Source: Setoptus koraiensis (lineage: Eukaryota; Animalia; Arthropoda). Taken from it: 64,000 bases of DNA. Of this stretch, positions 13,081 to 63,228 are shown in pieces; the stretch's first letter is position 1, and each line of letters starts with the position of its first letter. The translations under genes and the position numbers were made by a program. The stretch covers positions 248,001 to 312,000 of the forward strand of contig CM106586.1 of NCBI GenBank assembly GCA_048013815.1, in the 5' to 3' direction. Below the pieces are notes generated by a model. The model was not told the origin of the DNA. It saw only the letters and a program-made list of their open reading frames with translations, and searched no databases.

Positions 13081-13519
13081 AACTTCAACGACTCAACTAC
13101 ATCGATAAAGTCGAGCTTTGATGAGTCGGCAAACAGTATCATTATTGTGTCTACCATGCTCATCGCAGTGTTTATCTTCGTTATCACACTTTATTTGAAG
13201 TCGAAATTTATGGAAAAGACAAGAGAAGCTCCCTCCTCCCGGGCGGGAGCGGGCAGCTAAACGTGGAGCGAAATTTCAGTTGTTCCCCCGATCACTACTA
13301 TTGATGTAGTGATGTTGGATCCTTAATGGAGGAGCTACAAGCCTACAACTTTGAGTCACGCCCCCTCCCTAGCACACAGAGAGCTACACACTAGTTGAGA
13401 GTCACTTAAGTCGCTACGCCTCCCTAGCACACAGAAAGCTGCAGCTTGATTGAGACTTAAGTGCTAAAGAATCTAGACATCACAATTTTAAACTCTATGG
13501 AGATCTGAGTCTCTCGATT

Positions 13520-13965
13520 CCCGTGTTCAGAACATTGATAATTTCTCTTATGGATTTCATTTCTCTATTTATCTTGCCAGTCATTGACACGGTTGCATAT
13601 GTTGAGACATACATTGCAGATAATGCAAGTGTTACAGCAGAGATAGCACCACTGTCACGACTTGATCTATAGAGGGAGTTGCTTATTGCTTGAAGTGGTA
13701 TGATGATATTGTGTTCAAAGCTGATTACACGTTTAACTAATGTTTCGTCGATGTATGCAACACATGTTAGATTTTGGAAGCTTTTGGGACATGGGTTAAG
13801 GAAGGAGAACTTGATTTCATAATCGGTATTACCGTCTACCAGAATAATTGGCGTTCTTCTCCATATTACACTGTCTTCGTGATGAGAGGATCCTGTAGTT
13901 GGGTTGACCATGGTGGACAATGCCAGCGTAAGGACGATGTTTTTTCGGCGTGGATAGCAGGCCTT
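13520..13965 (-). pseudogene. Orphan N-terminal fragment of an env-like fusion glycoprotein
   Basis: RRKNIVLTLALSTMV (signal-like), SVIWR, FLNPC, FEHNIIIPLQAI, RSSR followed by a hydrophobic peptide and a heptad; motifs are colinear with the two env proteins at 46.9 and 53.6 kb; cut off by a 60-bp repeat. Confidence 0.7.
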
Positions 13966-14535
13966 TTAAGCCCATCATGTTTCGTGCACTTTTGGTTTTA
14001 ATATTATAGTTAGAATATCAGCTCTTTGTAATTGTGTTGGTGCGTATTCAATATTAAACTGTTTTTGAGAATGTTTCTGATGAATGTATTTATATTTTTT
14101 ATCGATATGTTTCGATCTTGCTCTATACCGATTCAATTAGACGTAGGGTAGCCTGGTTATCAATGAGTAGTCTTGCCCAAGTAGTCAAGTTTAATTCACT
14201 TAGAAGACTCTCTACCCATGCGTGTACTTTTGCTGCATGATTTGCTGCCACAAATTCCGCCTCTGTGAATGATTGAGCAATTATAGACTGTATCTCACTC
14301 TTGAATAGTATTGGACCACCACGTAGCTCAATTAGGATACCACTGGTTGACTTGCGTGTTATAATATCACTATCCCAATCTCGGTCACAATACGCATTAA
14401 ACTCGGGCTCATTATGTTTCTATTGTGTAAACAACAAACCGGCTGACATAGCACCCTTCAGATATCTTGCCACCGACAAGGCCGCAGTCCAATGTTTATG
14501 TTTTGAATCAGTGTTGAACCTCGATAGTAAACTTA

Positions 14536-16479
14536 CAGGGTGTTTGAACTGACCTGATATGTAAGCACTGTGGAAGGTACGTGCCTTCCACAGTGCATTT
14601 TTCAAAGCACTGCGGAAGGCATATAGCACAGCACATCGCACACGGGTATTTATTTTTCTTGCGCAACTATTTTCTCTCTCTCTGTGCACTGCGCCAAGCC
14701 ATTCTTGCGCAACAGCATGCCTTTCGCTTCTCTGGACTGTTGCACTTCCGTTTTAAGCCTCGGCCACACCCTAGTTTCTCCTTCATTCGTTCTTTGTCTT
14801 CGATTATTATACAGCTATTATTACTATTATAATTATCAATTAAAATAAAGAACATTATTGATCAAAATTAATTCATAAGAAAGAAAAAATCATGGCAGCA
14901 TTTATCAATCTATTTATCACCGTCGCTCTCATCATATTTGCGACTGCAGATGGTACAGAGCGCTGGACCAGACCGCAGAAGGCCGAAATGATGTGGGATT
15001 GAGCGAGAGTCAAAGAATACAAAACCTTGCAGACTCTGTACATACAAAAGAAGAATGCCGGTTTAATAGATTAAGGCCTACCGGACTATCAAACTCTGCA
15101 CCGAATTAAAAACAAATTTCTCACCTTCGGCACTTTCGACGATCGTCGCAAAGGAGTGAATTGCGAAATAGAAGCCTCAAAGATTGCTGCAATTAAAGAG
15201 CTGACCAAAGGTGGACTGTACCCATCAAGCATCCGCAAAATCGCCGCTCATCCGTCTGTCAACCTGACTATTTATATGACGCACAAGATGCTGCGAAGAT
15301 GTTTGAAGATGAAGCCATACCGTCCCAGAACACTGCAATACTTGAATGATAAGCAGCAAGAGCGGTTAGAATTTGCAAACAAAATTATTCAACTCGCTGG
15401 AGGGCGAGCCAGTCTCAATCATGATTATTTCAAGAATATAATATTTACCGATGAATCTTGGTTCAGCACGGACGGCTCTATCAACAAGCAGAACACTGTA
15501 TTCTGGTCTCCATCGAACCCAATGCAGGTCTATGAGCGCGAGATGCATGCAGATAAAGTCATGGTCATAGCTTCCATTGGCTTTGACTACAAGAAAGGAC
15601 CATTCTTTTTCAATGGTAGTGTGACTTCTCAAAGTTATCAGGATATGCTCGACGCGCACCTCTTCTCTGACCCATATATTATTAACGGCTTTGCTCAGAA
15701 GAGGCTTATCTTCATGCAGGATGGGGCTGGTCCGCATACATCTCTTTTGAACAGAGAGTACTTGAATGAGAAAACCGGCGGCCGTTGGCTCGGCAAGTAT
15801 CCGCCCTATCTGTGGTGGCCACCATATTCGCCAGACTTAACACCTATGGATTTCTACTTCTGGGGCGTTCTTAAATCAAAAGTTTACACGCATGATAGAC
15901 CATTTCGCGGTAAACTTGATCTGCTGAAGAGAGTAATCATTGAAGAATTCAACACCATGGACCAATTCGAAATCAATAAAGCTTGTGTCAGCGGGTTTGT
16001 CGACCGGATTGTCGAAGTTATACAAAACGAAGGTGGACACATCGCTCATGATGTGGAGAATCGAAGAACCGATCCAGAAGATTATCTCTACCTAGACCCA
16101 ATAGAGAGCCTCAGGATGGGACTGAACACGATCTCGCTGAGCGATGACCCGCCTGAGGAAATAGAATGTGACGATGACGATGATGATTTCGAAGTAATGC
16201 TGAAGAGGCAAGTAAACATTGAAGTCTTCCACAGAATCTCAGAGCTTTTAGAAAAATTCGACAAAGAAGAAGCGAAGCGATTCAACAAATATAGTAATTC
16301 TTCTGTCATTAATTAATATTAATTATTAATATTTTCAATGTAAAAGAGCCCCAATAAATGCACGAAGATGAGCACAGTGACAGTGCGCTCGTCGTGCAAG
16401 CGCGCAAGCGTGCGCGCCCGCATACCCCCTCTGTGCGAAAATTTCTGAGCCAACATATCACATCAGTTCAGACACCCTG
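14536..16479 (+). mobile_element. Tc1/mariner (rosa-like) DNA transposon, full length
   Basis: TA|CAGGGTGTTTGAACTGACCTGATATG ... CATATCACATCAGTTCAGACACCCTG|TA imperfect TIRs with TA duplication. Confidence 0.9.
14892..16316 (+). pseudogene. rosa-like DD42D transposase, 474 codons, two in-frame stops in the N-terminal part
   Basis: FTDES, FMQDGAGPH and WPPYSPDLTPMDFYFWG motifs; the frame extends from ATG 14892 through TGA 15000-15002 and TAA 15072-15074 into the tracked ORF 15156-16316. Confidence 0.9.
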
Positions 16480-18534
16480 TACATCAAACACGATGTCTGG
16501 GCGTGTGAGACATGCAAGATAGTTGATCGCTCCTGTGAGGCTACTGTATGGTTTAGATGTTGGTTTATCATCTGAGCATTCTGTGAGCAAATGATTCGCA
16601 TCGATCTATAGAGTTGTCGTTATTTTACCGTTTGCCATGTCAATCTTCGGTTGTTGTAACGATGAAGTCCCCACTCAGATCTTGATGAAACTTTCGGTAT
16701 GAGTCTATTATGACCCCAATAAGTCGAAAAAGTTAGTCTGGAAGTGCGAAAACTTCCGGTTCCGGTTTTACCTGAAGTTGAAGCCAGAGCTCTGAAATTC
16801 ACACGAGAGGCGATCCAGGCTATGCTGAACACGATGACACAATTTCCAGCTCTGTGCTACTTCCGGTTTTCTAGTTATAAGGATATTACTAGGGTTAAAA
16901 GACCAGAAGTGACAAAATTACTGCATCGCTGCACTCAGGTACGATCGCGAACATCGATTTAGAGACACGAGGGGGCAGCAGCGCATTTTTCCCTGCGCAG
17001 AACAGAGCGCGAATTTGAATTAGAAAAAGTGGTTATTCTATACAAGAGCGCCACACTTTTTTCGAGGTATTATGGGTATTTTCGGGTAGGATATTGTACC
17101 CTGATACCGCAATGGGTATTCTGGAAGTGCGGAAATTCCTCGTTCCCGAGATGACCGAGGTACCGCTCAGTGGGCGTTTCACAGTACCCGACAGCCGCTT
17201 GGGGATTTGCAGGTATTTTTTCGAGGTAATTTTTGGTACCTTGATGAGGTCGCATGAGGTTTTTTGGATAGACGAGTATCGTTGGAATATGGATGCGAGA
17301 GATGCATAGATGTTCAACTCCGACATGTTATCACATACTCAGAGACTCAAATCTCCATAGAGTGAACATGTGTAATGTTTAGATACTTTAACATGGTAAT
17401 CGAGAGACTCAAATCTCCATAGGGTTAACATGTGTAATGTTTAGATACTTTAACACGGGAATCGAGAGACTCAAATCTCCATAAGGTTAACATGTGTAAT
17501 GATTAGATACTTTAACGGATTTAGTACAATGAAACGCTTAAATGTTGACTTTTAGAATCTAGCACACGTAAAGCCAGGAGGCGGAGTCATTAGTAAACAA
17601 TTATACAGTGAAGGCTGAGAGACTAACTAGTAAAAATTAGCATGCGATAATGCTAGCTGTTCACAAATTGAATTTAGCACAAGGGAAGCTAGGAGTGCAA
17701 AAGCTAGACGGATTTAGTACGATGAAACGCTTAAATGTTGACTTTTAGAAACTAGCACACGTGAAGCTAGAAGGCAGAGTTATGAGAGGACAAATATACA
17801 GTAGAAGCTGAAACGCTAACTGGTAGAAATAAGCATGCGATAATGATATCTATTTACAAATTTGACTCATCAACACAAAGAAATAGCACACCGCACACAG
17901 GTCGTGCGCTTTATTACAGAGTGCGCCATTGCTGACTTTTTGTGTCTCGAAAAATCATTTATTGTGACTATTCACCAAATTTTGTACGCAAGCAGTCAAC
18001 ATGTGTATTTAGCCATATTGAAAATCTGAGACATTTTGATTTATTTTGTTACCCTCTACAGCTGCTTCGATCAGACCAAACGGCTCATTCTCATAGCACA
18101 CCGCACACAGGTCGCGCGCTATAACACATAGTGCACCATCGCTGACTTTTTGTGTCTCGTAAAATTATTTATTGTGACTAAATCGGGTATTATAAATTCA
18201 CCAAATTTAGTACGCAAGCAGTCAACATGTGTATCTTGCTATAGTGCAAATTTGAGACACGTAGATCTTCTCTCCCAAATCTCGCGGACTCGCTTCAAAT
18301 AGCTCATTCACACATTGAAGTAGCAAACAACATAGATTGTGCATCTTACAGCACATACTGTGCCATCGCCCCTCGGTGTATCTATCTAGATAGTTATCTC
18401 CGACATGTCATTACATACTCGCTTCTATATTCTTATCATACTTGTCCATCCAAAAAATTAAGCGCTCGAGATACTGACATAATCAGTATCACTTGTTTTC
18501 TGATGTTGTCGCATCGATGGTTGAAACGAGAATG

Positions 18535-24916: not shown

Positions 24917-26777
24917 ATGGGCACACCTCCATCTGTATGTTCGCTCTGACTGATCACAGTCCTGAATTTTCAACTGGTTTTGCTCCCTACTTCTACAGGC
25001 CCCATCCAAACACACTCTATTTGCTCTTATTCTGCTGAGTGTCTCTGTCACATGCGTCGGAGCCGAGCTTCTCCCAAAAGATAAAGCGAGAATCCTCTAC
25101 AATTTCTTCAAACTTGGGGAGAATTTTTGCCAGCTACAGAAACTTTACCAAAACAAAACTTTCGAAGTTGGCCAATTTCCGACGGAACGGAGAACTGTCA
25201 TTGATTGGAAAAAAAATTTTCTCGAGTTTGGCAACGTCAATGCTCCAAGGGGCGGTGCTCGTGAGGAGTTAACAAAAATCACGCCGGAACTTATTGAAAA
25301 AGTTAGAGTGGCCTGCAAAAATGGTACAGTACCAACAAGTACGAGATTGATAGCAGCGGAAGTAGGCCTCAGTAGGTGTACCGTTCACAGAATACTTAGA
25401 TGCAAACTGAAGTTGAAAGGATACCATCCACGCCACCTGCCCCGCCTTTACGGAGCTCAAGAGAAACGTATAGCATTTGCGGAAGCCATCCTTGAACGAG
25501 CGCCCCTTGAAAACGATACTTTCTACGAAAGACTCGTCTTCTCCGACGAGGCTTGGTTCACGACTGGAGGTCACGTGAACAAGCACAACACAGTTTATTA
25601 CGCAGATAAAAACCCGCATCATATTGTGGAGACTGAGTTGCACGCTAAAAAGAAAATGGCCATTGTATTCATCGGTCATTCATTCAGAAGAGGCCCGTTC
25701 TTTTTCGACGAGAATATAAACGCAGATAATTACATAAAAATGCTCCATGAAAAATTCTTTGATAATTCAACGATTCGAACATTCAGAAACCGTCGAAAAA
25801 TTTTCATGCAAGACGGAGCTAAACCGCACTCAGCCTTCAAAACGGTTAACTATTTAAACATGCAAACTGACGGTCAATGGATCGGAATCGGATCCTCCTT
25901 CTTAGAGTGGCCCCCACATTCGCCAGACTTGAACCCCCTCGACTTTTTCCTCTGGGGTCATCTTAAACAGCAAGTTTACCAGCATGGCAGAAGTTTCAGA
26001 GACAACCTGCCGTCTCTCATTAACACAATTGAAAATGAGTTTTGGGATATACTAAGTTTCACGATCGACAAGGCTTGTACGACCGAATTCCATGGTAGAC
26101 TCAAGAAAGTCATCGAACTGAAAGGCGCCGTCGTTTCTCACGCAAGAGAGAATCGAATAACTTCCGAAGATACTTATGCCTTTCTCAATCCAGATTTAGC
26201 TGCACAGCTTGATCCGGAAAATTTGTACGGTATTGATTTCGACCGCCTCTACATTTCGAACCCCCCAGGCACTGTGGTGGAAGACTGGTGCCACTGTAAC
26301 GGAACTTGTCCTAGGTGCTTGGAGCCGCTAGATGATCTTCCGAGCGAACTACGTCCCCTCGATGAACCCTCGCCAGAGAAAAGGCCCCGTCTCGAACGAA
26401 GTGTCGAATTTAGTGATCTTAACGAAACCCAAACATATGGAGACGATGTTGACGAAGTCTGTACGCGCAACTCCACCCAACCCGAAGAAAAGAAGCAAAA
26501 GCGATGCAAAAAATGTCGAAAATGTCGAAGATGTAGGAAGTGTCCGACACAGCGTAAATGTATGAGTTCAAGAGGAGCCACTGCATCGAGGAGGTCACCA
26601 TTTTCTAGATCAAGCTTGATTGCTCGCCTCGCTCTATCTGCCGTTGCCCTTACTCAAAGCCAACACGATGCTTATGAAGAGAGCTATGAGCGAGAAGAGC
26701 TGTTCTCAGACGAACCAAGCACTCATGAAGAGGATGATTATGACTCAAACCACGACCCATGCTGGACGACCCATTAA
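24917..26777 (+). CDS. rosa-like DD42D transposase, predicted two exons (24917-24934, 24999-26777), about 598 aa
   Basis: FSDEA, FMQDGAKPH and WPPHSPDLNPLDFFLWG motifs; stop-free frame from 24966; phase-0 64-nt intron GTATGT...CTGAC...pyrimidine tract...CTACAG links it to ATG 24917. Confidence 0.8.
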
Positions 26778-43970: not shown

Positions 43971-43977
43971 AGGAGCG

Positions 43978-45679
43978 TTGTCTGACCTCACGAAAAAGAA
44001 CGCACAATTCACCTGGGGTGAACGTGAAAAAGAAAGCTTTAATAGTATTAAACAAGGGCTATTAGAAAGCAAGGCCATAGCATATTTTAGGCAAGGTTGC
44101 CCATTAATCCTAAAGACAGACGCATCGCGCAAAGGATTTGCGGCGATACTGCTACAACTGCAGGACGGCGATTGGCGCATAGTAGCGACAGCCAGCAGAC
44201 GGATTTCAACAGGCGAATCAAATGTGAGTGTGACCGAACTAGAAGGAGCGGCGTTAATATACGCATGAATTAAATTCAGACAATTTGTCTACGGATAGAG
44301 AGTGAAAGTAATAGTTGACCATTGTGCTCTCTGCACACTGGGGAAAACCAAACCACTAGAAGGAAGATTAGCTCGCTGGGCTTTAGCCCTATCAGAATTT
44401 TATTTGGATATAGTTTATAGATCTGGAAGACAGCACGCGGACGTTGACTGTTTGTCACGTCAACCTGTGGCTGACCACGACGACAAACTAGACGAGACGA
44501 GATTTATTTTTGCACTAATCCCGTTGGAAGATTACAGATCCAAGTACGATACAGACGAAGAATGCAAAACAGCATTGCAAAAGATTAAACGAGAAGAAAA
44601 CACATTTAAACTAACTAACGGATACATTTATAAAGACAATCGCTTATTAGTACCAACAGAATACAGGAACACATTAATAGACGACATTCATGCACAAGGC
44701 CACGCCGGAGTAAACCAAACAGTAGACCTGGTTCAACGCAAATATTACTGGGCCAGTCTTAAAGACGACATACAAAAGAGAGTAGCAGCCTGCATGACTT
44801 GTCAGAGACATAAAATACCAAGAGAACGTCCAAGCGGATTAATGCATTCATTTGAAAGTCACATGCCATTTGAAGTGATAAGTATGGATCACCTAGGACC
44901 AATGGATGCGACAAGCAAAGGCAATAAGCATGTTCTAGTTGCAATTGACACATTCAGCAAATTTATTATTGCAGCCCCAACTAAATCCACGTGCGCAGAA
45001 GAGGTAGTTAAATTTATCATCAACAATATCATAGCGATACACGGCGTGCCAAATACTTTATTTTCCGATAACGCAAGCGGATTCACCGCAAACCTGACCA
45101 AACAGGTAGTAGAAGCTTTCGGTATAGAGCTTAACCATTCCACTCCATACCACCATAGAGGTAACTCAATTGTGGAACGATCAATACAAACCCTAAAAGA
45201 TAAGATTGCCATTTCCATGGCAGACGCCGACAACACTGAATGGGATGATCATATTGGAATGGTATGTTTAGCCATCAATGCCACGAAACATTCATCGACA
45301 AAATTTAGTCCTTATGAAGTACTATTTGGTAGAAAATTGCGACTACCGAGAGAGGCTAAGGAGGTGTCAGCAGAAACAGAAGTTTATACAGAGTCCCTAC
45401 AAGCAAAATTAGAGCTTATTAGAAGGAACGTAGCAGAAAGCATCCATTCGAGCAACGAGCTATCAAAACAATATTACGACGCGAAGAGGAAGGAAAAGAA
45501 ATTCAGCATTGGTGACGAAGTAATGGTTCACTTCGAGCCAAAGAACGACGCAAAACCGAATAAGCTATCAAGCAACTATCGCGGACCATACGAGGTCATT
45601 GACACGAAGCCTCATGACATCTATAAATTAGAACTGATCGATTCCAAAAAGAAGAAGAAGATAATACTTGCTCACGTTT
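43978..45679 (+). pseudogene. pol: Ty3/gypsy pol: RNase H and integrase (continues at 46725 after the MITE)
   Basis: TDAS and ELEG in RNase H; H..GHAG...C..C zinc finger; ISMDHLGP, SDNA and VERS integrase core; GPY motif; two in-frame stops near 44266-44298. Confidence 0.93.
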
Positions 45680-46717
45680 GGTTGTTGTAGCGAATAGCGA
45701 CCCGCCCCGATTTTGGTGAAACTTCCGGTACGGGTACTTCTTGACCCCAATAGACCGGAAAAGTTGGTCCGGAAGTGCGGAAACTTCCGGTTCCGGTTTT
45801 ACATAAAGTTAAAGATAGAGCTCCGAAATTCACCAGAGAGACGTTTCAAGCTACGCTGAACACGATAAAATAATATTCAGCTCTCTGCAACTTCCGGTTG
45901 TCTAGAAATAGAGATATTACAAGGGTTTGAAGACCGGAAGTGACCGAATTATTGCTTCGCTGCGCTCGGGGATGAACATGCGATGGGTCTGAAAACTCGG
46001 CCTGCGGCCTCGTATTCTGGAGGCCGTCACATCTCCGTCGTCGCTCCCGCGACGACTGCGTGCGACGGGAACCCTTCGGGTAGGGTTGATGAGCGCTTCG
46101 GGTATCGGGCTACGCCCTCTACCCTCCGCTCAGGTGACTGCAATCCACACAGGAATGAAGGTGAAAGAACGAACTGGAGACATGTTTTTGGCACAGAAAA
46201 AAGGCTGTGCCAGCTTGTGTGATAAATTGCATGAGCCTCTAAGCGCACGAATTCATTCAGGCGCGTGTTATACAACATGGCATATCCCATACAAACTCCT
46301 CCCTGTGCGCTCGACGCTACGCCGTCGCCTATTTAAGGCGAGCGCACAGGGAGTAATGGATTCATTCCTGTATCCAGCTACAAATAGAGCATATCTTATA
46401 TATAAAATAACACTACCCGCAATTGCTTATTTCATAACACGCGCGGATAGTTCGTCCCGTCGACGCCCTCTCAGCAGTTTTAACCAAATATCTCGTGAAC
46501 CGGAAGTCGTACAGACTTGAAATAGACATGATCGCATTCCGCATGCACAGTTTCAGTTATCTAGTGAGTTTCAAATCTGTATCTCAATGTTTTTGTAAAA
46601 CCGGAACCGGAAGTTTCCGCACTTCCGGACCACTCAAACTGTTGTCAGGGAGCCCCACGGGCTCCATGTGTAAAGTTTCATCGAAATCTGACTGGGTCGC
46701 TATTCGCTACAACACCC
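45680..46717 (+). mobile_element. Merlin-type MITE inserted in the integrase C-terminus
   Basis: CACGTTT duplicated on both sides (7 matching bases; 8 with one mismatch); removal restores AHVSRLKPY. Confidence 0.92.
46266..46439. mobile_element. 174-bp solo LTR nested in the MITE
   Basis: TGTTAT...ATAACA termini; CGCG 4-bp TSD; absent from the sister MITE copy (empty site at ~33215). Confidence 0.85.
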
Positions 46718-46924
46718 CACGTTTCACGTCTTAAACCATACAAACGTAACGGAGACGAGTCACCCGAACTCGAACGCGTAGTGATTGACCTAGACGAAGA
46801 TATTGATACAGAGGTTAATCAACCTGAAGATACTGATGATCACCAGCATCCGGAGGCAACAAACACAAGAACAGAACAACCACGAACCAGTAGACGAAAA
46901 AAAAATTTTAGACCAACTAACTAC

Positions 46925-48631
46925 ATGAATCTAGTAGCCTCACTGTTGCTCATGACAGCAACCATGAGCAATGGGATTGCATTTGTACCAACTGAATCAG
47001 TCATATGGCAAGAGAGTGTCATAGATGCAGTCAACAAACTGACCCACTATTCCTTAGAGCTACTCGTCGTCAATCCGTGTGACCACTTATTCACAAATAT
47101 CACAGGAAACAAAGTAATTGACGATAATATGATCGACCATTGTAGAACCAAATTCAACGAACAAGTTAAGACACCATTGCAGAGCTTTTGTACAAAATCA
47201 ACGATACCAGAAGATTCACTAAGCAGAGATAAAAGACTGATAGGAGATCTGATAGCAATCGGTATATCATCTACATCGCTCGTCATGGTTAACGATATAA
47301 GAAAACACGATCTACCTTATGTAAAGGATTCGATAAACCAAGTAAGGGAAGTCATCGATAAACAAATGAAATCAGTAGACTTCCTAATCGAAGAATTGAA
47401 AACTGCCAGAGAAGAGCTCCTACAGGAACACCAAACGAACGCCGCAAATGAAGCCGAGCTGTCAGACAGTATTGAACAAGTAAAGACCGATTTGGAGGCA
47501 AGCAGCGAAGCATCATACGTGATGGCTAATGTATTACAGAAGATGAACAGCATGGAATACAACATGCAAGTAGCAAAAGACGCCTGGTTCGATGACAAAA
47601 TAGTGAGAAAAGAGTTATTCGCGTTGATGAACGCACAATCGCACTTCAGCAATGATATTAAGAGGCATGGAAGACCAAGAACATGCAAAGTGCTAGGAAC
47701 CAAATTGCTACTATCATTTACCGCATTCAGGAAGGACAGCACATCATCAGTACTCGAGGCGAATGCCTTTGATCATTTTAACGGTGCAAAAGACAATTTA
47801 TGCACAATGCGATACACCGCACCGACACTTGTTTTAGTGAACGCGTCTACCGACTGTTACAAAGAACTCACCCGTTCTGACATGCAGGTAGGAAACACAA
47901 TTATGACTACATGCATCAAAGAAGAGCCTATTAAACCCCCGGCATGGATCAAAGGGGAATGCATGAACAGAAGCAGCCGTATCGACTTTTACAAAGTGAT
48001 AACAAAAGACGGCTTTAACCATATCTATTGTTACCCATACACCATCAAAACTGATGAAGGAGAAGACAATTGCCCGGCATACCCATTTAAATTGCCAGAT
48101 GATGTGTCTTTCACGACCAACACACACGCTTATATCAGCGAGAGAAAGGAGATAAAGGACGTATGGGACATTAAAATATCAACGGCGAAAATAAATCACA
48201 GACTGAAAACCCAATTCGCACCTTTCATTATAGAACCAATTAACAATGCGAAATTCAAGGACACCTTTCAGATGTTACAAAAACCAGTTGAGTGGATTAA
48301 GGAAGGGCGTTGGAACAACACACTACAGAGCTTCAATCTAGAATTTATTCCCAGTCTTGATTGGATAACAGGCCCTACGAAGTACGTAATTTACGGCGTA
48401 ACGGTAATAGGAATCCTATTCATCATCTCCTTTACTATGCCGATGATTAGACTTTGCACATGGATACTAAGAAGAGCGTACGCACCAATTCTGGCGATAA
48501 TATCGATAGCAAGGATGACTATACGACGTTGTTTTGTTCGACACCAATTACCCATGTATACATCGAACAAACAATCCTTTTATAAGAATCTAACTAGAAC
48601 CTCGCAAACGAAAACGTATCGTTTGTTATAA
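46925..48631 (+). CDS. env: Env-like type I membrane fusion glycoprotein of the gypsy element
   Basis: Signal-like MNLVASLLLMTATMSNG; RDKR at 47225-47236 followed by a hydrophobic peptide; heptad region; Cys-rich ectodomain with N-x-S/T sites; TM YVIYGVTVIGILFIISF; tail ends YRLL. Confidence 0.85.
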   Translation: MNLVASLLLMTATMSNGIAFVPTESVIWQESVIDAVNKLTHYSLELLVVNPCDHLFTNITGNKVIDDNMIDHCRTKFNEQVKTPLQSFCTKSTIPEDSLSRDKRLIGDLIAIGISSTSLVMVNDIRKHDLPYVKDSINQVREVIDKQMKSVDFLIEELKTAREELLQEHQTNAANEAELSDSIEQVKTDLEASSEASYVMANVLQKMNSMEYNMQVAKDAWFDDKIVRKELFALMNAQSHFSNDIKRHGRPRTCKVLGTKLLLSFTAFRKDSTSSVLEANAFDHFNGAKDNLCTMRYTAPTLVLVNASTDCYKELTRSDMQVGNTIMTTCIKEEPIKPPAWIKGECMNRSSRIDFYKVITKDGFNHIYCYPYTIKTDEGEDNCPAYPFKLPDDVSFTTNTHAYISERKEIKDVWDIKISTAKINHRLKTQFAPFIIEPINNAKFKDTFQMLQKPVEWIKEGRWNNTLQSFNLEFIPSLDWITGPTKYVIYGVTVIGILFIISFTMPMIRLCTWILRRAYAPILAIISIARMTIRRCFVRHQLPMYTSNKQSFYKNLTRTSQTKTYRLL

Positions 48632-48640
48632 GGAGGGGGA

Positions 48641-48797
48641 TGTTAGAGATTAGTTGAACATTCTATGTTCATACTTGGCGCAAACTATACTGTGCACACT
48701 TTCTGTGCACATGCACAAACATGTAAACGTGCTCACGCTGTGTATAAATAGCGTGGCACAAGATTCAAATAAACACTTTTACTATTAACTTCTAACA
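48641..48797 (+). repeat. 3' LTR (157 bp) of the env-bearing gypsy element, preceded by its PPT
   Basis: AAGGAGGGGGA then TGTTAGA...TCTAACA; internal TATAAATA and AATAAA. Confidence 0.88.
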
Positions 48798-48829
48798 GCA
48801 GATGTTCTGTTCGTTTCAAGTTCGCGCGC

Positions 48830-49650
48830 GGTTCTGCGCAGGGAACACGCGCTACTCCTACCCCCCTGAGCGATCATTTATTGCCGCGATTGTATATCAG
48901 ACTACGATAATCCCGATGACATCATTTTCACATCTCTTCAACTTCCGGTTCTCGAGATATTCAGGAAAATTGCACGTATGGGCGAATCTAGGCCGGTCTG
49001 GGTCTGTTCAGAGCCCAAATCTTACACCCAGAGCAGGGTGACACGCATTCATGAATAAAACCCGGCTCGATCACGGGCCCAGCCCACTAGACTCCCAGTC
49101 CTCGGGAAGAATCTTTTTTAGTTTGGTGGCCGTCAGTCGTCCCGCCGGAGGCCGCAGGCCATAGGCGTGGACGACTGAAGGCCGAACCCCTTCTCCGGCC
49201 CAGGCCCAAGCTGCATGGCAGACGGAAGGGCTATTATATATTATATACAAGTGAGCATGGGTACCCCGTGTACATCGTGCTACCCGCAACAGTCATGCCA
49301 AACTCATTCGGTTGTGATTATTAGCCCATTACATACTCGGATACCCGAAATACCCGGATAAAACCTGGTACCGCACCTCGGGTTCATTTTCACACTTACG
49401 ATATACAATTTATGAGTTCAAAATACTTGACTGTACCTTGCTTTAACAAAATTAATTTCAAAGAAAGCAGTGGGAACCGCTAGCGGTCGTCGGGTATCTC
49501 AAAACGCCCACTGTGCGGTACCTCGGTTATCTCGGGAACGAAGAACTTCCGCACTTCCGGAATACCCATCGCGATATCAGAGTACAATATTTTACCCAAA
49601 AATACCCAAAATACCCCGATAAAAGTGTGGCGCTATTCGTTAGAACAACC
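48830..49650. mobile_element. Merlin-type MITE, family 2-like composite
   Basis: Shares the hairpin core (49128-49183) with 51608-51663 and ends GTGGCGCTATTCGTTAGAACAACC; left boundary uncertain. Confidence 0.6.
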
Positions 49651-49829
49651 AAAATTTGTAGTATGCAATGCACTTGAGTATCCTGCCCGTTTTCTCTCCT
49701 TTGCTGACGACAAGGACGGGCATACAATCATTCAACAGGTCTGTAATGATGCGTCTAAATGTTATAGTAAGACCGCAATAGCTAAATGGGATCGCGATTG
49801 TTACTCTGTGTTGCTACTATGGTGGCTAC

Positions 49830-50260
49830 TCTTATATTTCAGATAAGCGAGCACCAAGTAGCAACAAACACTACTGGAGATGCAGTTTGAGCCATAAGCC
49901 CTTTAATTGTCAGGGTCGAATGACCACTGAGATGGTCCGTGGAGCAACGGCAACACAGATGGCCAAACATAAAATTATTAGAAGTGGCAGAGGCAAGCCA
50001 CACAACCATCCTCCATCACCAACGGTGAGAGCGAGAAAGGATACATTGGCGAGTTTGAAAGCTCGAGCAGGTACCTCTCAAGACAAGCCAGCTAACATGA
50101 TATTGAATGTCCAGAGAACACTGAGTGTTGACGCTGGAACAGGTCTGCCATCTCAAGATGCCCTGAGGAGGCAGATCAAGCGTGCGCGACGCGCCAATCA
50201 ATTGATTGAACCTCAATCTTTGGATCAAATCGATCTACCGGATGAGTTGAAAATCACTCT
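49830..50260 (+). pseudogene. MULE-type transposase N-terminal fragment (FLYWCH-like)
   Basis: HYWRCSLSHKPFNCQGRMTT...HNH, followed by LPSQDALRRQIKRARR. Confidence 0.65.
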
Positions 50261-50722
50261 GAGAACGACATCTACTCAAGAGAATGTGCCGACCCCAAAA
50301 TTTGGGGCAAACACACGCGAAGAATATTTGACAACGTCATAGATCGTATGCAAATGAAATGGGTCACGCCAGGATATCGCATCACACAAATTTTAACTGA
50401 TCATGGTTATTTTAATAACATGCTATGCAAACAGGAATTCGTAAGATATCCATATTGTGAAAAATGTGCCAGTAACAACATAAGAGCACTTGATAACGCC
50501 GAACACTACGTCTTCGAATGTCAAGCTTATCACAATGATAGGGGAATCTTAAACGAATACATCATTCCAAAAGCGTATAGAACGCTAAAGGAAATAGTTG
50601 CTGACAGAGCGGCATACTACAGGTTGAAAAGATTTATTCACAAAAACAACAAACTAGATTGGATAGAAAATTCAAGGATATCCATGCTGGCAATAGATGA
50701 TCCGATCAACCATAATGATTAA
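50260..50722 (+). pseudogene. R1-like non-LTR retrotransposon ORF2 C-terminal fragment
   Basis: ITQILTDHGYF...CEKC...DNAEHYVFEC CCHC knuckle; an upstream LSFADD remnant near 49700. Confidence 0.7.
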
Positions 50723-50987
50723 GCCAATGAATAATTCAATTCTAATCAGAGCAATAATCAATAAAGACTATGCAAGTACATATGCAAGTGTCACAATCGG
50801 ACACAAGATTGCAACATCCGCAGTCAGGATGGAAACAATCGAGATACAAACAGCAACCAATAGGAACACCAGCCTCAATGGAATTGTCACAATCAGACTT
50901 ATGACTGCGACAATCTGAGTCGAGATTGACACAATCAAATCGCGAATTGCGATAATCAACGCTAAGATTACCTATCAATAACATGTG

Positions 50988-51136
50988 TGTTGTATTTTTA
51001 TATTACTTAGATGTTTATTCTATCGTATCTAAAACTCTACTACTACAATAATAATAATAACAAATCTGTTACATATGACAATATATATGAACATACAAAA
51101 GCGGCATTGCGCATGACTAATGGACGTATCTCAATA
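50988..51136 (-). repeat. Putative 3' LTR (~149 bp) of the copia element
   Basis: Minus strand GAGTGGGAG PPT (51137-51145), then TATTGAG...AATAAA...ATACAACA. Confidence 0.6.
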
Positions 51137-51157
51137 CTCCCACTCGTCCATTAAATT

Positions 51158-53614
51158 CTATGTAAGCGAAACGTATGATGGTCCAGGTTGAGACATGGGG
51201 TGTTCTTCAGAAAGACGACACACTCCGATTTCGATGAAACTCAACAAATGGGCCCCGAAGGGGCCCCTGAGGACAAATTGAGTGGTCCGGAAGTGCGGAA
51301 ATTTCTACTTCCGGAGATATAGAAAATGCATTTTCCGGGCCTCAGACCTAAAATTTCTGTATGATTGTCTAGATCCACATGCTATCTATGCGATAGCGTT
51401 AAGATAAATCCTCTACATCAACTCGTTCGCGAGATATTCTACAATAAGCGCAAGTCACACTTCCGGTTTTAAAACTGATTCGGCTGTACTACCAACTAGT
51501 TACGGTCTCTAAAGCAAGTTCACACCCTATATAGAAGAAACCCGGCCCGATCACGGGCCCCGCTCATTCGACTCCCAGTCCTCGGGAAGAATCTTTTTCA
51601 GTTAGGTGGCCGTCAGTCGTCCCGCCGGAGGCCGCAGGCCGTAGGCGTGGACGACTGGAGGCCGAACCCTTTCTCCGGCCCGGGCCAAAGATGCATGTCA
51701 GACGGTAGGGCTATTGCCTTGAACCCTGGCCCTGAACCATTATTAGTAGGAGTCCTGGCCGAGGCTAGGACTTTAGGCTTCGCCTGGGGTGTTACTCTTT
51801 TCCGGTAGTACAGATTATGACCTTAGTACCCCACCCGATGTCCGTGCGGGTGAGAACGGCCGACTATACCGTCAATATGCCCTCAAATACCCTAAAATAC
51901 CCTAAAATACCCAGTATGCGGTACCTCGGGTATCTCGGGTACGGGAAATTTCCGCACTTCCGGAATACCCATTCCGGTATCAGGGCATCATATTCTACCC
52001 GATAATACCCAAAATACCCAAATCGGGGTGTGTCGTCTTTCTAAAGAAGCCCCGAGACATGTTTGATCCATATATCTCTGAGTGACATTGCTGCGGCGGA
52101 GGTGGCAAATTAGTTAAGGGTACAGATTCAGCTTTCTTCTTTAGACAATATTTAGTTCTACAATAATATATTATTGAGCTGATCAGTACAATAATGAAGC
52201 AGGTCAGGACAGAACCCAAAGATATCAATATAATATTATTGTTCTGTTTTAAATATTGCACTTGTAGACCTGGTTCACTCAGTTCGACCAAACCAGGGTC
52301 TAACTTACTCACAACTCTCTGTAATTCAGCGATTTTTGTTAGAAAATCTGCAGATGTCTCTAAATGCTTGTCTCTAGTCCAGGCAGCTGTTATGTTTTCT
52401 GATAGTATGTCACTCGATGCCGATACATCTATTGCTTCTGATATGGCATTGGACGAGTCTTCTCCTAATTTCCAAGAAACATCTAATGGTAATTTGAAAA
52501 CGAAAGGTGGACACTTGTGATCCTTACCATTGATATTTATAATGCTGTTGAAACAATAGAAATACGTATGTGTTTTCGTCAGTTTGATCTCATGTGACTT
52601 TCCTATGTGATTTATATCCATCTGACAGGAGTGTGTTGTCCAATCGTTTGCACCTGTCATGAACTGATGATTTGTTTCCTCGCATCTAGTTACCTGATAC
52701 CGATCAACAGCTAAAGTTCTAATTGGTAACGTGCAATTAGCAGTGATATTGTGCACAACATTCTTAGTGCCGGTGTATTCCTTGATGCATGGTGAGCCTG
52801 TAAGGTTGGCATAGATTTTAAACGGATCGGCCTGCAGAATAAAAGTGTTTTTGTCGGTTATCCGGGTGACAAATCGAAGGTGGACCACTCCTGGCTTAAT
52901 AACATGGCATTTTCCTGCATTGGAAGATAGAGGGTCGATGTCACGGAGATCATCGATCATTAAAAATTCACCTAACTCTGGTCCTACTCTGTAGGTCTTC
53001 CATGCAAATTCGACTTGTCTGAGCAGATGTCCTTTCTCTTTGATATCATTTAGTATGGCTGCTGACATCCAAGCTTGCTGTGGAAATGAAATTGCCATGT
53101 CATGTATTTTCTGGGTATTGGAAGTGACTTGTCGAGATATTATCTTGAGTGCATCTGTATGTGCTCTCTGAACCATATAGATCTGATTGGCATGATTGGT
53201 TAATTTTGCAGATTCTTTTTCAACCCTTTCTATTCTTTCTTTCTCGGATGGGTCTTTTGTCACAAACCATCCTCGGACTGTTTCGACTAAACTTGTGACA
53301 ACATATTCGGAAACCATGCCTGCAGCGAATTCTAATTGTCTTTTATCGCGATTGTGTAGATTGCACATATTATTCAGAGGTACGATGATTTCTTCGTCAA
53401 AAAGTCGTTGACACTCATTGTAAACATCGATGTTGTATGCTGCGTTTGGCGTGTTTAGGTTCAAACAAGGCGATTTGACTGCCATTGTTATGTCCCAAAC
53501 TTTCATTCCCAATGGAATTACTTTGTCTGTCTTTCTCCATAAGATATCGGATTCTTGTTTCAATATCTGACTCGATGTCATGGTAACTATTGATAATGGT
53601 GCTATAATACTCAT
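51158..53614 (-). CDS. env: Env-like fusion glycoprotein fused in frame to copia RNase H (MITE in the tail)
   Basis: Hydrophobic ILMSIIAPLSIVTMTSS directly after ADMFTKPL; RDKR at 53339-53350; heptad; Cys-rich ectodomain; TM IILISLGSVLTCFIIVLISSIIYYC; restored end NMSQPGPSYVSLT-stop. Confidence 0.85.
51198..52053. mobile_element. Merlin-type MITE, family 2, complete, in the env cytoplasmic tail
   Basis: TIRs GGGTGTTCTTCAGAAAGACGACAC / GTGTCGTCTTTCTAAAGAAGCCCC; 8-bp TSD GAGACATG. Confidence 0.92.
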
Positions 53615-56600
53615 GAGAATGTTTCTCAATGAAAGGAATTTTGTTTTCGGTAATGGCTTAGTGAACATGTCAGCCAATTGATTTTCTGTGCCAATATATT
53701 CAATTTTGATATCTTCCATCTTCTTTGACTCAATGATGAATTTATATTTTATGTCTATATGTTTGATTTTTGTGCTTATGATCTGATTATCGATGATCTT
53801 TATTGCTGCTTGGTTGTCAATGAATATGTTTGCTGACTGAATTGGATTCTTCAATTCAGTTAATATTTGCTTCAACCAAATTGTCTCTTTTATCGAATGA
53901 CAAGCAGCCACTAGTTCTGATTCAGTTGTCGACAAGGATACTGTAGGTTGGCGTTGACTCTTCCATATAATAGGAGAGTCATTTATCAGACATATTATAC
54001 CAGACGTGGATTTCCTGCTTTCATCATTAGCATAGTCTGCGTCTGAGTAAGTATTTATTGTCAAGGCGTTTATGTTTCTTGAGACTCCTTTTTTATATGT
54101 GATGCCCAATTTAGATGTTCCCTTTAAGTAGCGAAATACTCGCTTGACAGCGACCCAATGTGCATGAGTATGGCAGTGATTAGCTCGACTCAAATATCCT
54201 ACGACAAAAGCCAAATCAGGACGAGTTGCGATCATTGTATACATGAGAGCTCCCACTGCTTCACGGTATGGAACTTTTTCATCAGCGACAGCGTCTTCTT
54301 TGATTTCTATGTACTCACTAATTGGAGTTGCGATACTGTTGCACCCAGACATTCCAAATCTGCTGATGATCTTATTTATGAAGTTTTCTTGCGAAAGAGT
54401 GATCTTGTCATTGCTAATATTTATGTCAAGGCCTAAAAAATAAGTTGCACTCAGCACACGAACTTCAAACTCTTTCTCAAGCTCCATTTGTATCTTCTTC
54501 AAACTTGAGACGCTTGTCGAAGCTAGTAGTATATCATCTACATAGACTGCGATGATTGTGAAGTTCGTGTCTGATCTCTCAAAAAACACACAAGGATCAT
54601 TTTTTTAGTTTAGTCAATTTGTTACTGACTAGAAACCTTGTGAATCTGTCATTCCATTGTTTCGGTGCTTGCTTGAGCCCATAAAGGCTCTTTTTCAACA
54701 AATAAACATCGTTTGGTTTACCAACATGAAACCCTTCTGCTTGTTCCATGTATATGGTTTCTTCTAACTCTCCATACAAAAAAGCAGTTTTTACATCATA
54801 CTGCTTGAGAAACATATTGTAATTTGCAATTAATGTGAACAGCAGGCGGATCGTTTCAATTTTTACTACGGGCGCATATGTTTCTAGATAGTCAATGCCG
54901 TATACTTGAGTGTACCCTTTCGCAACTAGACGCGCCTTGTAGCGCTCTACTTCACCACTTGATGTCTTTTTGACCTTGTAGATCCAGCGACATTTCACTG
55001 CTTTCTGAGATGTTGGTCGACTAACGATGGTCCACACATTGTTTTTATGTAGTGATGACATTTCTTCCTTCATTGCAGTGATCCATTCTGCTCTATTTGA
55101 ACTACTCATGGCACCATCGTATGTAGATGGCTCATTTTCTAGCGTCATTGCCTCATATGCGGCATGTGCACAGTAAGCTCTGCCACTATACGGTAATGAC
55201 AGAGACTCTGATGGTCCTTGGCTGCGTAACTGCATGGATCGTGGCTGATTCGTGGTATTTTCAGCTTCTTGATTTGGAGCCACTGTTTCGATTGAGCTAC
55301 TAAATGATTCATTTGATTCATGTTCGATTTGCTCTAACGAAGACGAATCCAGATTACTATTGAGGCATGAAGTATCGTCGAGTGGTACTGTAGCCACTTC
55401 GCTGTCATTGCCAAGAGTTTGGTCTTCAGAGTTAGTTGACGATGAAACTTCTTCTTCTATGAATATAACGTCTCTTGATGTTTTGATTGACTTCGAGTGA
55501 GGAAAGTAAATTCTATACGTATTATATCTATCAGTGTAACCAACCAAGATCCCAGGTTCCGACCTTGGCTCCCACGCCTTCAAAGACTGATCTGCAATTT
55601 TAAGATAAGCTCGACATCCATAGACTCGCAAATTAGTAACGCTAGGTTTCTGACCATGGAATAATTCATAAGGCGTAACTGACGGATTTCTTGAAGAAAT
55701 CGAACGATTGAGCAAATACACTGCTGTGTTACAGGCTTCTGCCCACAGAAATTGTGGCAACTTTGCACCAATAAGCATAGTTCTGGCTAATTCTTTTACA
55801 CTACGGTTCTCTCTTTCGACTTTACCATTTTGCTCAGGTAAATATGGTGCTGAATATGTCTTATGAATACCTTTTTCATTTAAATATTCGATGAAATTAC
55901 CATTTTCAAACTCTGTACCATGGTCACTATGAAGACATGTGACTTTCTTAGATGAGTACTCGATTTCTGCTACTACCTCTTTAAATACAGATAGCACTTC
56001 TTTCTTGCTTCTGATGAATTTAATGAATCGATAATTTGTATATTCATCAACTAGGAGGACGAAGTAATTGGCTTTTCCTAGAGACTCAACGGACATAGGG
56101 CCACATGTATCTGCATGCAGTTTTCCAAAGCTTTTTGCGCGATCATGGAAGGACTGTTTGTAGCTGACCTTATGATGTTTTCCGATGATACACGTTTCAC
56201 AAGTATTGTTTTCTTTTCCACTGAGGCTTAGTCCTACTACGACATCATTACTTGCCATTTTCGAAAGTCGTTCTTTATTTATATGTCCAAATCTCGAGTG
56301 CCAAGTGGACATACTAACAGAAATATTAGCTTCTCCTTTGATTATTTTCAAATTCAGACGATAGAGATTTTGGTGCATATCACCGGTTACAACCTCTATG
56401 TTATTTTTGTAAATGTAGCATCTTTTTCCTTCGAATATCGTTTTACTACCATGTTCATTGGTATAAGGAACTGAAAACAAATTTGCTCCCAATTCTGGCA
56501 CATGAAGAACGCGCTCCAAGACGAATTTCATAGATGGATTATCGGATCGTTCACATTTTATGCTACCGACCCCAATTGCTGAGATGATTCTGTTTCCACC

Positions 56601-57593
56601 GACTGTGACTTGGATTGGTTCGTTTAATGACTCGTATGTACTGAAGTATGTTTTCTCACATGACATGTGTTCTGTGGCACCACTATCAATGATGAAATCA
56701 GTGCCCGAATTTGTGAAGTTTGCCACTGCAATTAATGCGATTGAGTCATTGCTTTGATTCGTTGAAGATTGTGAATTGTTCTTTTTGCTTTCATTATAGA
56801 TTCGTTTTCTACACTCTGAAATCCAGTGCCCTTTCTTTTTACAATAATTGCACGGAAAACGAGATTTTTTGTTGTTATTTGCAGGCGAATTGCTCTCATT
56901 CTTTGATTGTTTTGGTGGATTCGAATGATGGTTCTTATTATCTTGCTGATGGCTTCGTCTAAAATTCGATGCTTGTTTCGAAGTCGACGCTGTTAGAGCT
57001 TCAGATTTTGAATTTTTGTTCGATCGATTCATTTCAAAGAGTGACTCTTCAAGGAGCAGCCTCGGACTTAATTCATTCATTGTTCGTAGAATTTTCTGAT
57101 CATTGTGCCAACCTGAGATGAAGTTTCTGTACGTGTCACCAAGAGTGTTGACAATTCTTGAGACCATGATTCTCTCATTCATTGGCTCTCCGAGACTTTT
57201 CAATTTGTTGCATAACAATTCAACTTTCGAGATATGTGTAGACATGTCGTCTTTTTCTGATTTTTTGTATGAATATAACTGCTCTCGGAGCATATCTAAT
57301 TGACACTCGCTGTTTTGGTCATAATAACTTTCTAATCGTCTCCAGCATTCAAATGAGGTTCTGCAAGTTGAAACTTTGTCCACCAGATTGAAATCGATGG
57401 ACGTTAATAAAAGGCCGAGTACTTTTGCGTCTACTTCGTCGTAGGCAGCTTTTCTAGCTTGATCGAGACCCGATCCATCGGTTTCGAGTACTAGATACCA
57501 ATTTCTGGCCTTTAGGACGGCATAGACGATAGTTTTCCATGTTGCGAACTTTTCACCCTTAAACACGGGTACCTTTACTTTTGATTCGGCCAT
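53615..57593 (-). CDS. pol: Ty1/copia gag-pol (gag, CCHC, protease, integrase, RT, RNase H) with one +1 homopolymer frameshift at ~54600
   Basis: CNYCKKKGHWISEC, IDSGATEHM, WHSRFGH, SDHGTE, YKARLVAKGY, YVDD, YSDADYA; copia domain order; deleting one A from the A7 run restores KNDPCVF. Confidence 0.96.
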
Positions 57594-57600
57594 AGCGTGT

Positions 57601-57614
57601 CAGGACCCATAACC
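57601..57614 (-). promoter_or_regulatory. Copia primer-binding site (initiator tRNA-Met half-molecule type)
   Basis: Minus strand GGTTATGGGTCCTG, close to the GGTTATGGGCCCAG PBS of Drosophila copia. Confidence 0.8.
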
Positions 57615-57738
57615 TTTTAGTATTTTAATAATAGTTGTTTATTTAATGATTACATAGTCACACTACTGATACAATAGTTACAAACAATATAAATGTAATA
57701 AATGATATCTATGATGTTTATTTTATGGATTCACAAAC

Positions 57739-58210: not shown

Positions 58211-58710
58211 AGAAAGCAACAAATAAACAATTTTCATTACATTCAACCAGTAGGATAAAGATCCGCGCGATTATTCACAAGCACACACCTCGCGCCTAGA
58301 GCGCACACAAACACATTGTACACAAGCACATTGCTCACAAGCACACAGCACGTGAGTCAACACAAACACAGTACACAAACACCAAAAGTCACACAAGCAC
58401 ACGGTGCACACAGCACACAAATGTTAGTACAATAACACCCGACAGAGGGCCAAAACAATCACAATCAACGCAAATCAAGTGCGTCAACCCATATAAAGGG
58501 CGAGCAGATTGCAAGACAAATGCACACAGTCGCCCATCAATAGAAGATCAATACAGCAAAGTCCACTCAAATCAGACTCTATCATTACAGAACCACTGTA
58601 ACAGCTAGGAGTCTAGTCAAATCAACAAGTTCTATCATTGCAATAGTAGTGCTATTGCAACATCCAGGAACATCAAACCCACAGCAAACCAGCACCCTTC
58701 AAGTTCAATC

Positions 58711-59403
58711 ATGGCACGAAGAAGGAACAGTCGACGCGAAAGCCCAAGTGCTTCGCCAGCAATTGGTAACAATGAGGAGCCAACTCCTCCAATCACTACT
58801 CACCACCGAATGGCATCGCCGGTACGGGCCAATCCATACCAGCAACATCCGCTCTCAAACAGCAAGGGTATGGTCCATTACAATGGACTCGACAAGCCCG
58901 TGAGTGCAAGAGCCTGGATGCACATGTTCGAGCGTCATGCTAGACGCCTCCACTGTGAGGACGAAGACAAGATGCTCTACGTCGACTGCTTCTTGGATGG
59001 TGACGCTATAACCTGGTATAGTCACGAATGTGAACGCTTCGAAAACATGGAGTGGGAGGACTTCAAAGAAGAGTTCTACCAACGCTTTGACAGCAGCATC
59101 TCCGAACCGTTCACACAGTTCGTCGATTTCCGGTTCACCAAGGAGATGACTGTCAAGCACTACTATGAGGAAATGAAACGGCTAAGCGGCCCAATTGGTT
59201 TGAAGACCTGCTTCCTCATAGAAGCACTCACTCGCGGACTACCAATGAGTTACCGGATGCAACTCAAGTCCGCAAGACCAACCACAACTGGTCAGTGGTT
59301 GGACTTTGCGCAATCTCTAGAACGCGAGTTCCAGAAACAGCAAGTCCGGAAGGTATCTACAGGGTACTCTTCACCAGCGCATTGCCTACGGCGCAATCGA
59401 TAA
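58711..59403 (+). pseudogene. gag: Ty3/gypsy-type gag fragment (capsid region), no pol
   Basis: ARAWMHMFE...FLDGDAITWY...WEDFKEEFYQRF retrotransposon gag pattern. Confidence 0.8.
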
Positions 59404-62521: not shown

Positions 62522-62947
62522 TCAGCCACTCAACTTTTCCCTGACTGAGGTCCTGTTGTTTAGGTTTTCTACGGTTTGCTGCATCTCCTTCAATTGGTCC
62601 TTAACCACTGTCATAGGATTATATTCATTAAATTTTTGAATGTTTTGATCATTCAAAATTGGAATATGCTCTATGATTGGTATACATTGGCAGTTTAGGG
62701 TTCTCTTGGCTAGGGCACAGGCTAGGGTTGTTAAATAGTTTACATCGCCTAATATGTAATGTTTGTTTTCTTTGCACAATGACTCAATCATTGCCTTCAA
62801 CAGCTCTATTTCTTCCTGGGCCTCTTTCATCGTCCGGGCCGTCCCTTCAATAGATAGAATATCAGTGCTCTTCGCTTCTGATATTACCGAAAGTATTGTA
62901 ACCATCAACAGAATGTTCGCTATTGCGTTTAATCTTCGGAAACGCAA
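62522..62947 (-). CDS. Small predicted secreted coiled-coil protein, unknown
   Basis: True ATG; MRFRRLNAIANILLMVTILSVISEA signal-like segment; heptads; 4 Cys. Confidence 0.4.
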   Translation of the reverse strand: MRFRRLNAIANILLMVTILSVISEAKSTDILSIEGTARTMKEAQEEIELLKAMIESLCKENKHYILGDVNYLTTLACALAKRTLNCQCIPIIEHIPILNDQNIQKFNEYNPMTVVKDQLKEMQQTVENLNNRTSVREKLSG

Positions 62948-63228
62948 GGGTTGGCGAACGGTCAGGCTATTTGGGGTGTTGGGGTGTTCTTTCGAATAGG
63001 TCTGATGGAGTTGTATACTAAGTTAATTGATTTGATACAATGCTCAGTGTTCTTGAATTACATAAGTGTTTTTATAGTCTAGTGAAAATGATAAGAATGT
63101 TCCCTGACCCAGATAGACTATTAATAGAAAAGTTGTTATAGCTGACTAAATATAACAAGTAATACTGATCTTATCAGCATCAAGAGCGCTTAATTTTGTG
63201 AGTTGATAATTTGCAGATGTCAAAATTT

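Follow-up and report, generated by a model that had tools for sequence, protein, structure and literature searches.

The 64,000 nucleotides of the Setoptus koraiensis genome analyzed here (assembly GCA_048013815.1, contig CM106586.1, positions 248,001 to 312,000; hereafter the window, numbered from its first letter) contain three retrotransposons that carry envelope (env) genes of one family. Two of the carriers belong to the Ty1/copia superfamily of long terminal repeat (LTR) elements and one to the Ty3/gypsy superfamily (Table 1). Our reading, to which we give a probability of roughly three in four, is that one divergent env family of the viral F type is fused to pol in both superfamilies, that this module was probably exchanged several times, and that the copia lineage in the window probably obtained it from a gypsy donor. 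Exchange of env between elements, taken in total and in either direction, appears very likely; a gypsy donor for the window copia lineage is the favored direction and is moderately supported.

The env of the gypsy element and that of the main copia element are 21% identical over 420 columns (BLASTP, E 2e-8). Every motif pair on which a preliminary description of this DNA had based their kinship is colinear in this alignment, and profile comparisons agree. A profile built from copia-fused envs only matched the window gypsy env with 203 bits, and a profile built from gypsy-fused envs matched the window copia env with 286 bits. The latter profile was made without the window gypsy env, so that the test is not circular. 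With scores of this size the homology is not marginal. The env of the second, decayed copia element scored 51 bits with the copia-only and 33 bits with the gypsy-only profile. This third env had been noticed before as a divergent member at 13.5 kb. That is correct and can be refined: it is itself copia-borne, with RNase H (14,536-14,129) continuing into env (13.5-13.9 kb).

The identity of the carriers follows from their pol domains, and the domain order agrees with the assignment made earlier. In the main copia element Pfam finds Retrotran_gag_2, an RVT_2-type reverse transcriptase (RT) and an integrase ahead of it; the order Gag-protease-integrase-RT-RNase H is that of Ty1/copia (Pseudoviridae). 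The gypsy element has Integrase_H2C2 and SH3_Tf2-1, with RNase H ahead of integrase. Its RNase H, integrase, env, polypurine tract and LTR are arranged as in an errantivirus in the wide sense, while gag and RT are hidden by an assembly gap. Both envs are indeed in-frame pol fusions, as had been proposed. In the copia element RT, RNase H and env form a single open reading frame (ORF) of 869 codons (54,604-51,995), and in the gypsy element the C-terminal end of integrase, a linker and env can be read directly in one shared frame from 46,718 to 48,631.

Single contigs span the RNase H-env junction of the copia element in 4 of 4 sequencing runs from 3 studies, one of which is perhaps the source sample. 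The fusion is not an assembly chimera. The stretch around the frameshift near 54,600 is gap-free in the contigs of X1 and X2 and has one gap each in records of X3 and X5. For the gypsy integrase-env junction the support is the single open frame together with the layout of the relatives; the same layout is found in 27 gypsy-fused relatives. The gypsy element fits a known kind, the gypsy elements with F-type env described in PMC13524379.

The two proteins have similar layouts. The gypsy env starts with a signal-like segment (residues 3-21), followed by a furin-type site (RDKR, 101-104), a hydrophobic segment directly after it (105-123), a heptad region, a Cys-rich domain, a transmembrane segment (487-505) and a terminal YRLL before the stop codon. 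In the copia env the signal-like segment lies directly after RNase H, and RDKR (89-92), a long heptad helix (129-206), a Cys-rich beta domain and a transmembrane segment (461-479) follow. The transmembrane segments come from a hydropathy scan. Four sequons precede them in each protein, and both envs have heptads and conserved cysteines. Both tails had been said to end in YxxL, which holds for the gypsy env. In the present copia ORF no YxxL occurs beyond residue 480, because its final ~21 codons derive from an inverted-repeat element of 857 bp. The remnant beyond this insertion ends in YVSLT-stop; thus the statement is true of the copia env only when read across the insertion. In the family a terminal YxxPhi was found in 10 of 42 rows labeled copia, in 2 of 23 labeled gypsy and in 6 of 50 that bear no label, as compared to 7% in shuffled sequences. 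It is therefore not a family-wide trait and at most one of a copia subgroup.

Sequence profiles did not reveal what kind of envelope this is. No Pfam envelope family matched either window env at E<=0.5, and neither Baculo_F (PF12259) nor Fusion_gly (PF00523) was found in 31 relatives at E<=1e-4. Fusion_gly matched one of 68 members (E 0.0016), and Baculo_F was absent among the families shown. Searches of solved structures with single sequences gave nothing useful, a profile search of them gave weak heptad-level matches to F only, and the gypsy env had no homologue in a word-index search. A structure model of the copia env was more informative. It was built on 99 sequences and reached a pLDDT (predicted local distance difference test) of 78.5; an earlier model from 5 sequences (pLDDT 44) was discarded. 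The best Foldseek match was postfusion F of respiratory syncytial virus (RSV; E 7.5e-8), and all 40 rows shown were pneumo- or paramyxovirus F proteins, the best solved structures including also Langya virus F and human parainfluenza virus 3 F. The model gave a VIA Z of 9.8 with a root-mean-square deviation (rmsd) of 10.6 over 320 aligned residues, and it contains the F2 strand and helix, the long first heptad repeat and the Cys-rich beta domains of the F ectodomain. In BFVD the top matches included glycoproteins of lispiviruses and arliviruses and baculovirus F (9-13% identity). The look-alikes of both window envs in the Atlas belong to Baculo_F and Fusion_gly clusters. As only the copia env was modeled, the F fold of the gypsy env is predicted from homology and from this Atlas likeness.

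The preliminary description had seen no fusion-peptide consensus of errantivirus or baculovirus F in the sequences, and the two Pfam profiles do miss them. Its suggestion that the family may be distinct from F does not hold, since the model resembles F of RSV, parainfluenza virus, Newcastle disease virus, henipaviruses and baculoviruses. A new class of fusogen is ruled out by the structural matches to RSV and paramyxovirus F and to baculovirus F. On the basis of the model, the window envs are a subfamily of the F-type class I fusion envelopes that current profiles miss, with a predicted fusion activity. For the family an F fold, a signal peptide, a furin site, a fusion peptide, heptad repeats and a transmembrane anchor are predicted.

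The family is large. A profile search returned 993 proteins (clusters) at E<=0.001; the carrier labels, the env trees and the comparisons with individual relatives are drawn from the best 150 of these, and the profile is biased to the window copia env. In 52 of the 150 the env is joined to copia RT or RNase H, in 27 to gypsy integrase domains, and for the remaining 71 no pol could be assigned. Of the copia-fused rows 24 are single ORFs of more than 1,800 amino acids, and in P0015 Pfam finds copia gag, protease, integrase and RT ahead of env. The env of the second copia element in the window has its best match in copia P0123 (34%). Ten metagenome loci were found. Two of them, L003 (1,319-8,313) and L004, are gypsy elements with one gag-pol-env ORF (2,216 and 2,183 codons). 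Their terminal repeats are identical, from which it follows that single-ORF carriers were mobile until recently. The subgroup of the window copia env had no locus in metagenome or viral contigs, and a second viral scan was blank as well; both viral scans were short-pattern searches of limited sensitivity. From the published carriers we infer that the hosts of the relatives are invertebrates. P0027, P0064 and P0077 each contain two stretches that match the env profile, and a long insert lies ahead of the furin site in P0027.

Env trees, whose comparison with RT trees had been proposed, interleave copia and gypsy. A tree of 90 rows (all 83 labeled and 7 of the 71 unlabeled ones) has 8 label changes on the labeled rows. 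In a tree of 48 rows, which like that of 27 rows is a subset chosen afterwards, copia needs 7 changes, and none of 200 bootstrap trees gets by with one. Copia monophyly is rejected by the approximately unbiased (AU) test (p-AU 7.9e-44). The interleaving was unchanged under the mixture model LG+C20 with 27 rows. These results support the earlier proposal that an env module passed between superfamilies. The window copia env itself is the clearest case. Beyond its own trio, its best matches among relatives with a known pol belong to gypsy elements: it is 39% identical to the env of gypsy P0008 (298 bits), 43% to that of P0143 and 31.5% to that of P0006. Within its own copia trio identities are 53-55%, and copia envs beyond the trio score 115 bits or less. 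A group made up of it and the remaining copia envs in its half of the tree is rejected (p-AU 1.1e-4). Gypsy rows branch successively below the trio with a support of 80-98 in the 48-row tree and 84-89 under the mixture model. Further pairs across the superfamilies are copia P0019 with gypsy P0120 (36%) and copia P0034 with gypsy P0022 (28%). A direct transfer between the two elements of the window can be dismissed, as their envs lie on opposite sides of a split with 100/100 support and the AU test rejects them as sisters (p-AU 1.7e-7). The two genes are distant cousins and not donor and recipient.

The tree of RT-RNase H was calculated with the 38 env-bearing copias that have enough RT and every second of 113 further rows, after six plant or fungal rows had been dropped. 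Env-bearing copias fall into about four groups among env-less relatives, which requires 4 changes, 3 of them forced by starred branches. The window copia lineage and P0004 together occupy a separate long branch, and there are sister groups whose envs come from opposite halves of the env tree. Almost all of the relatives taken as env-less (115 of 119) end within 25 residues after RNase H. To judge from the two sets of trees, env does not follow pol, and its carriers are many and independent.

The junctions suggest how such fusions could arise. In the copia elements the signal-like segment of env starts at the last helix of RNase H, and env-less relatives stop ~20 residues past the AD-x-LTK motif. 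At the 15th position after this motif, 29 of 54 env-bearing copias have Met, as opposed to the env-less ones, of which 73 of 115 have Gly and no more than 2 have Met; not every env-bearing copia shares the Met, P0003 having Val, and the rows counted are related. This Met may hint at a start codon of env on a subgenomic RNA. In the gypsy elements an acidic-then-basic linker precedes the signal of env. Since the cassette would bring its own signal sequence, recombination at the end of pol would yield a working fusion. Template switching between co-expressed RNAs is familiar in retroelements and the most likely route; between element RNAs it would probably have placed env where copia pol normally stops. 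The env could then be translated as the C-terminal end of the polyprotein, to be released by signal peptidase, or it could have a subgenomic RNA as its template. After insertion into the endoplasmic reticulum through its signal, it would be cut by furin at R-x-K-R. The cleaved env might coat particles that pass from cell to cell, as is described for Drosophila gypsy in the ovary (PMC13524379).

A different explanation for the mixed trees would be that both superfamilies captured env independently and repeatedly from diverse unsampled arthropod viruses with F-type glycoproteins, and never exchanged it directly. The fold is common to glycoproteins of arthropod negative-strand RNA viruses and to baculovirus F, 71 of the best 150 relatives lack a pol that could be assigned, and the env-bearing copias are not one RT clade. 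Yet the best viral structural matches share only 9-13% identity with the family, while envs of copia and gypsy reach 39%. The two scans of viral contigs, within their limited sensitivity, found no relative, and the pol-fused layout is the same in both superfamilies. We consider this explanation unlikely. Repeated capture from one virus group, which the preliminary description had put forward besides exchange, could also be imagined, but no positive evidence for it was found. Slightly less probable still is that copia was the reservoir, with one ancient gain of env, repeated transfer to gypsy and loss in most copias. Copia carriers do outnumber gypsy carriers (52 to 27), and the envs of gypsy P0120 and P0022 stand beside or among copia envs. 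Three of the neighboring gypsy envs as a clade are not rejected either (p-AU 0.151). Against it are the 4 changes on the RT tree, 3 of them forced, the RT sister groups with envs from opposite tree halves, and the reports of F-type env in gypsy elements across metazoan phyla (PMC13524379). Moreover, it still implies an exchange between superfamilies; only the direction differs.

That the copia-env fusion arose by accident, through nested insertion or misassembly, or that coiled-coil membrane proteins resemble each other here by chance, is hardly conceivable. It is true that nested elements crowd the window, that there are two assembly gaps in it, and that the pairwise identity is low, at 21%. 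This notion is already refuted by the contigs of three studies across the junction, by 52 other copia-env fusions with the same junction point, and by the cross-profile scores. Repeated exchange, with gypsy as the probable donor of the window copia lineage, thus remains our preferred explanation.

Several points weigh against it nevertheless. The direction depends on gypsy envs around the copia trio that were named for the AU test after inspection of the tree; four of them as a clade are rejected only at p-AU 0.020, and, as mentioned, three of them are not rejected at all. The trees are unrooted, without viral F outgroups, and cover 150 of 993 hits. Copias were judged env-less from their proteins only, by which a separate env ORF would be missed, and P0247 is counted as env-less on the RT tree although it bears an env. 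As to the protein, the model as a whole fits the known structures only modestly (TM-score 0.25-0.30, rmsd 10-20), and the furin-type motif is present in just 50 of the 83 labeled envs. Finally, the 5' (57,615-57,735) and 3' (50,988-51,136) LTR-like segments of the main copia element are only weakly alike (score 64 against a shuffle maximum of 62), which is surprising in view of the long ORFs of this element.

Table 1. Env-bearing retrotransposons in the window and associated features
Feature	Position	Strand	Basis and remarks
Main copia: gag, protease, integrase, N-terminal half of RT	54597..57593	-	Pfam; frameshift near 54,600 separates it from the rest
Main copia: C-terminal half of RT, RNase H	53615..54604	-	Pfam RVT_2; same ORF as env; 70% identical to env-bearing copia P0004
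Main copia: predicted F-type env, ~518 own codons	52061..53614	-	Model, sequence features
857-bp inverted-repeat element in cytoplasmic tail of copia env	51197..52053	.	7-bp target duplication at 51,190 and 52,054
Main copia: env tail remnant (YVSLT-stop), purine-rich tract, ~150-bp LTR-like segment	50988..51189	-	
Main copia: primer-binding-site-like motif	57603..57614	-	Sequence
Second, decayed copia: RNase H into truncated env	13500..14536	-	Stops and frameshift; different env subgroup
Second copia: RT fragment	16480..16647	-	Tc1/mariner-like ORF 15,075-16,316 between RT and RNase H
Gypsy: pol, RNase H and integrase	43972..45672	+	Pfam RT_RNaseH, Integrase_H2C2, rve, SH3_Tf2-1; tblastn with P0022
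Inverted-repeat element (like a miniature inverted-repeat transposable element) in C-terminus of gypsy integrase	45680..46717	.	7-bp target duplication at 45,673 and 46,718
Gypsy: final integrase residues, acidic-then-basic linker	46718..46924	+	Frame common with env; P0006 alignment runs from 46,718 into env
Gypsy: predicted F-type env, 568 amino acids	46925..48631	+	Sequence features, homology
Gypsy: polypurine tract, then 157-bp TG...CA LTR-like segment	48632..48797	+	Single copy within the window

All three env-bearing copies in the window are broken and likely inactive. The 5' half of the gypsy pol lies inside an assembly gap, and a stop codon and an inserted element break the remainder. 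The primer-binding-site-like motif of the main copia element we take to be of the Drosophila copia type. Given its weakly alike LTR segments, this element may have arisen by recombination between two copia families. The copia subgroup of P0123 and P0034 has a second hydrophobic segment and a Cys-containing domain beyond env, and a remnant at 62,621-62,956 (minus strand) weakly matches their extension of ~250 residues after the transmembrane segment (E 2e-5 and 7e-5).

Other elements are present as well. A gypsy fragment with protease, RT and RNase H (20,879-22,836, plus strand) is 70% identical to the env-bearing gypsy P0022; integrase and env are not visible in it. Pfam places a gypsy-type gag fragment and two Tc1/mariner-like DDE_3 transposase ORFs among 15,075-16,316, 24,966-26,777 and 58,609-59,403, and the ORF at 23,498-24,196 presumably resembles the N-terminus of a Merlin-type transposase. 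Inverted-repeat elements such as the two in Table 1, G-rich at their ends and flanked by 7-bp target duplications, are abundant throughout the window. Pieces 98-99% identical to the one in the gypsy integrase occur at 32.6-33.5 kb.

To our knowledge, copia is usually taken as the LTR superfamily that lacks true envelopes in animals. It may nevertheless be, with the chances about evenly balanced, that animal Ty1/copia elements comprise several widespread and undescribed enveloped lineages, probably infectious, which share a mobile F-type env cassette with Ty3/gypsy. If so, LTR retrotransposons would be able to exchange infectivity as a module, even between retroelements that diverged deeply, and these copias would be a new lineage of retrovirus-like agents. 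This is of relevance for the access of transposons to the germline and for their movement between hosts. In the literature searched, which did not extend to subscription journals and Repbase, F-type envs are reported in gypsy elements, BEL elements and lokiretroviruses and none in an animal copia. The available passages of PMC5408684, PMC12440569 and PMC9040795 likewise contain no animal copia with an F env. The gypsy half of our findings belongs to a known kind, and the copia carriers and the repeated crossing between superfamilies were not found in the literature searched.

Several known systems resemble the one described here in part. Pneumo- and paramyxovirus F and baculovirus F (Ld130) are the best structural matches, yet with a sequence identity of 6-13%. 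The env of the rotifer element TelKA and the Env of lokiretroviruses are paramyxovirus- or Mononegavirales-like F glycoproteins on LTR retroelements; in the passages available, neither is described as having a copia carrier. Plant Sireviruses (SIRE-1) are copias with an extra gene after pol, as here, but they are plant-specific, while for the window env an F fold is predicted and its reading frame continues that of pol. We know of no shown homology of the Sirevirus ORF to viral fusogens. Among BEL/Pao elements, Drosophila Roo carries an F-like env and Anakin a chuvirus gB-like one, which also occurs beside gypsy pol. This is an earlier example of two LTR superfamilies with an env type in common, but the superfamilies concerned are BEL and gypsy and do not include copia, and the Anakin env has the class III gB-like fold. 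PMC13524379, too, notes a gB-type env common to BEL and gypsy.

The closest parallel are the gypsy elements with F-type env which that study describes across metazoans, including oribatid mites and springtails, and lists also in scorpions. Their env agrees with the present one in its F fold, in furin site, fusion peptide, heptads and transmembrane segment, and in its position after pol. The study kept Ty3/gypsy elements only: "copia" has no hit in its element table, and env-like ORFs in copia-like elements are given one sentence, whereas the family described here is fused to copia pol as well. The study concludes that recombination between env and pol was infrequent. In the family of the Setoptus elements, env appears to have crossed the superfamily line repeatedly.

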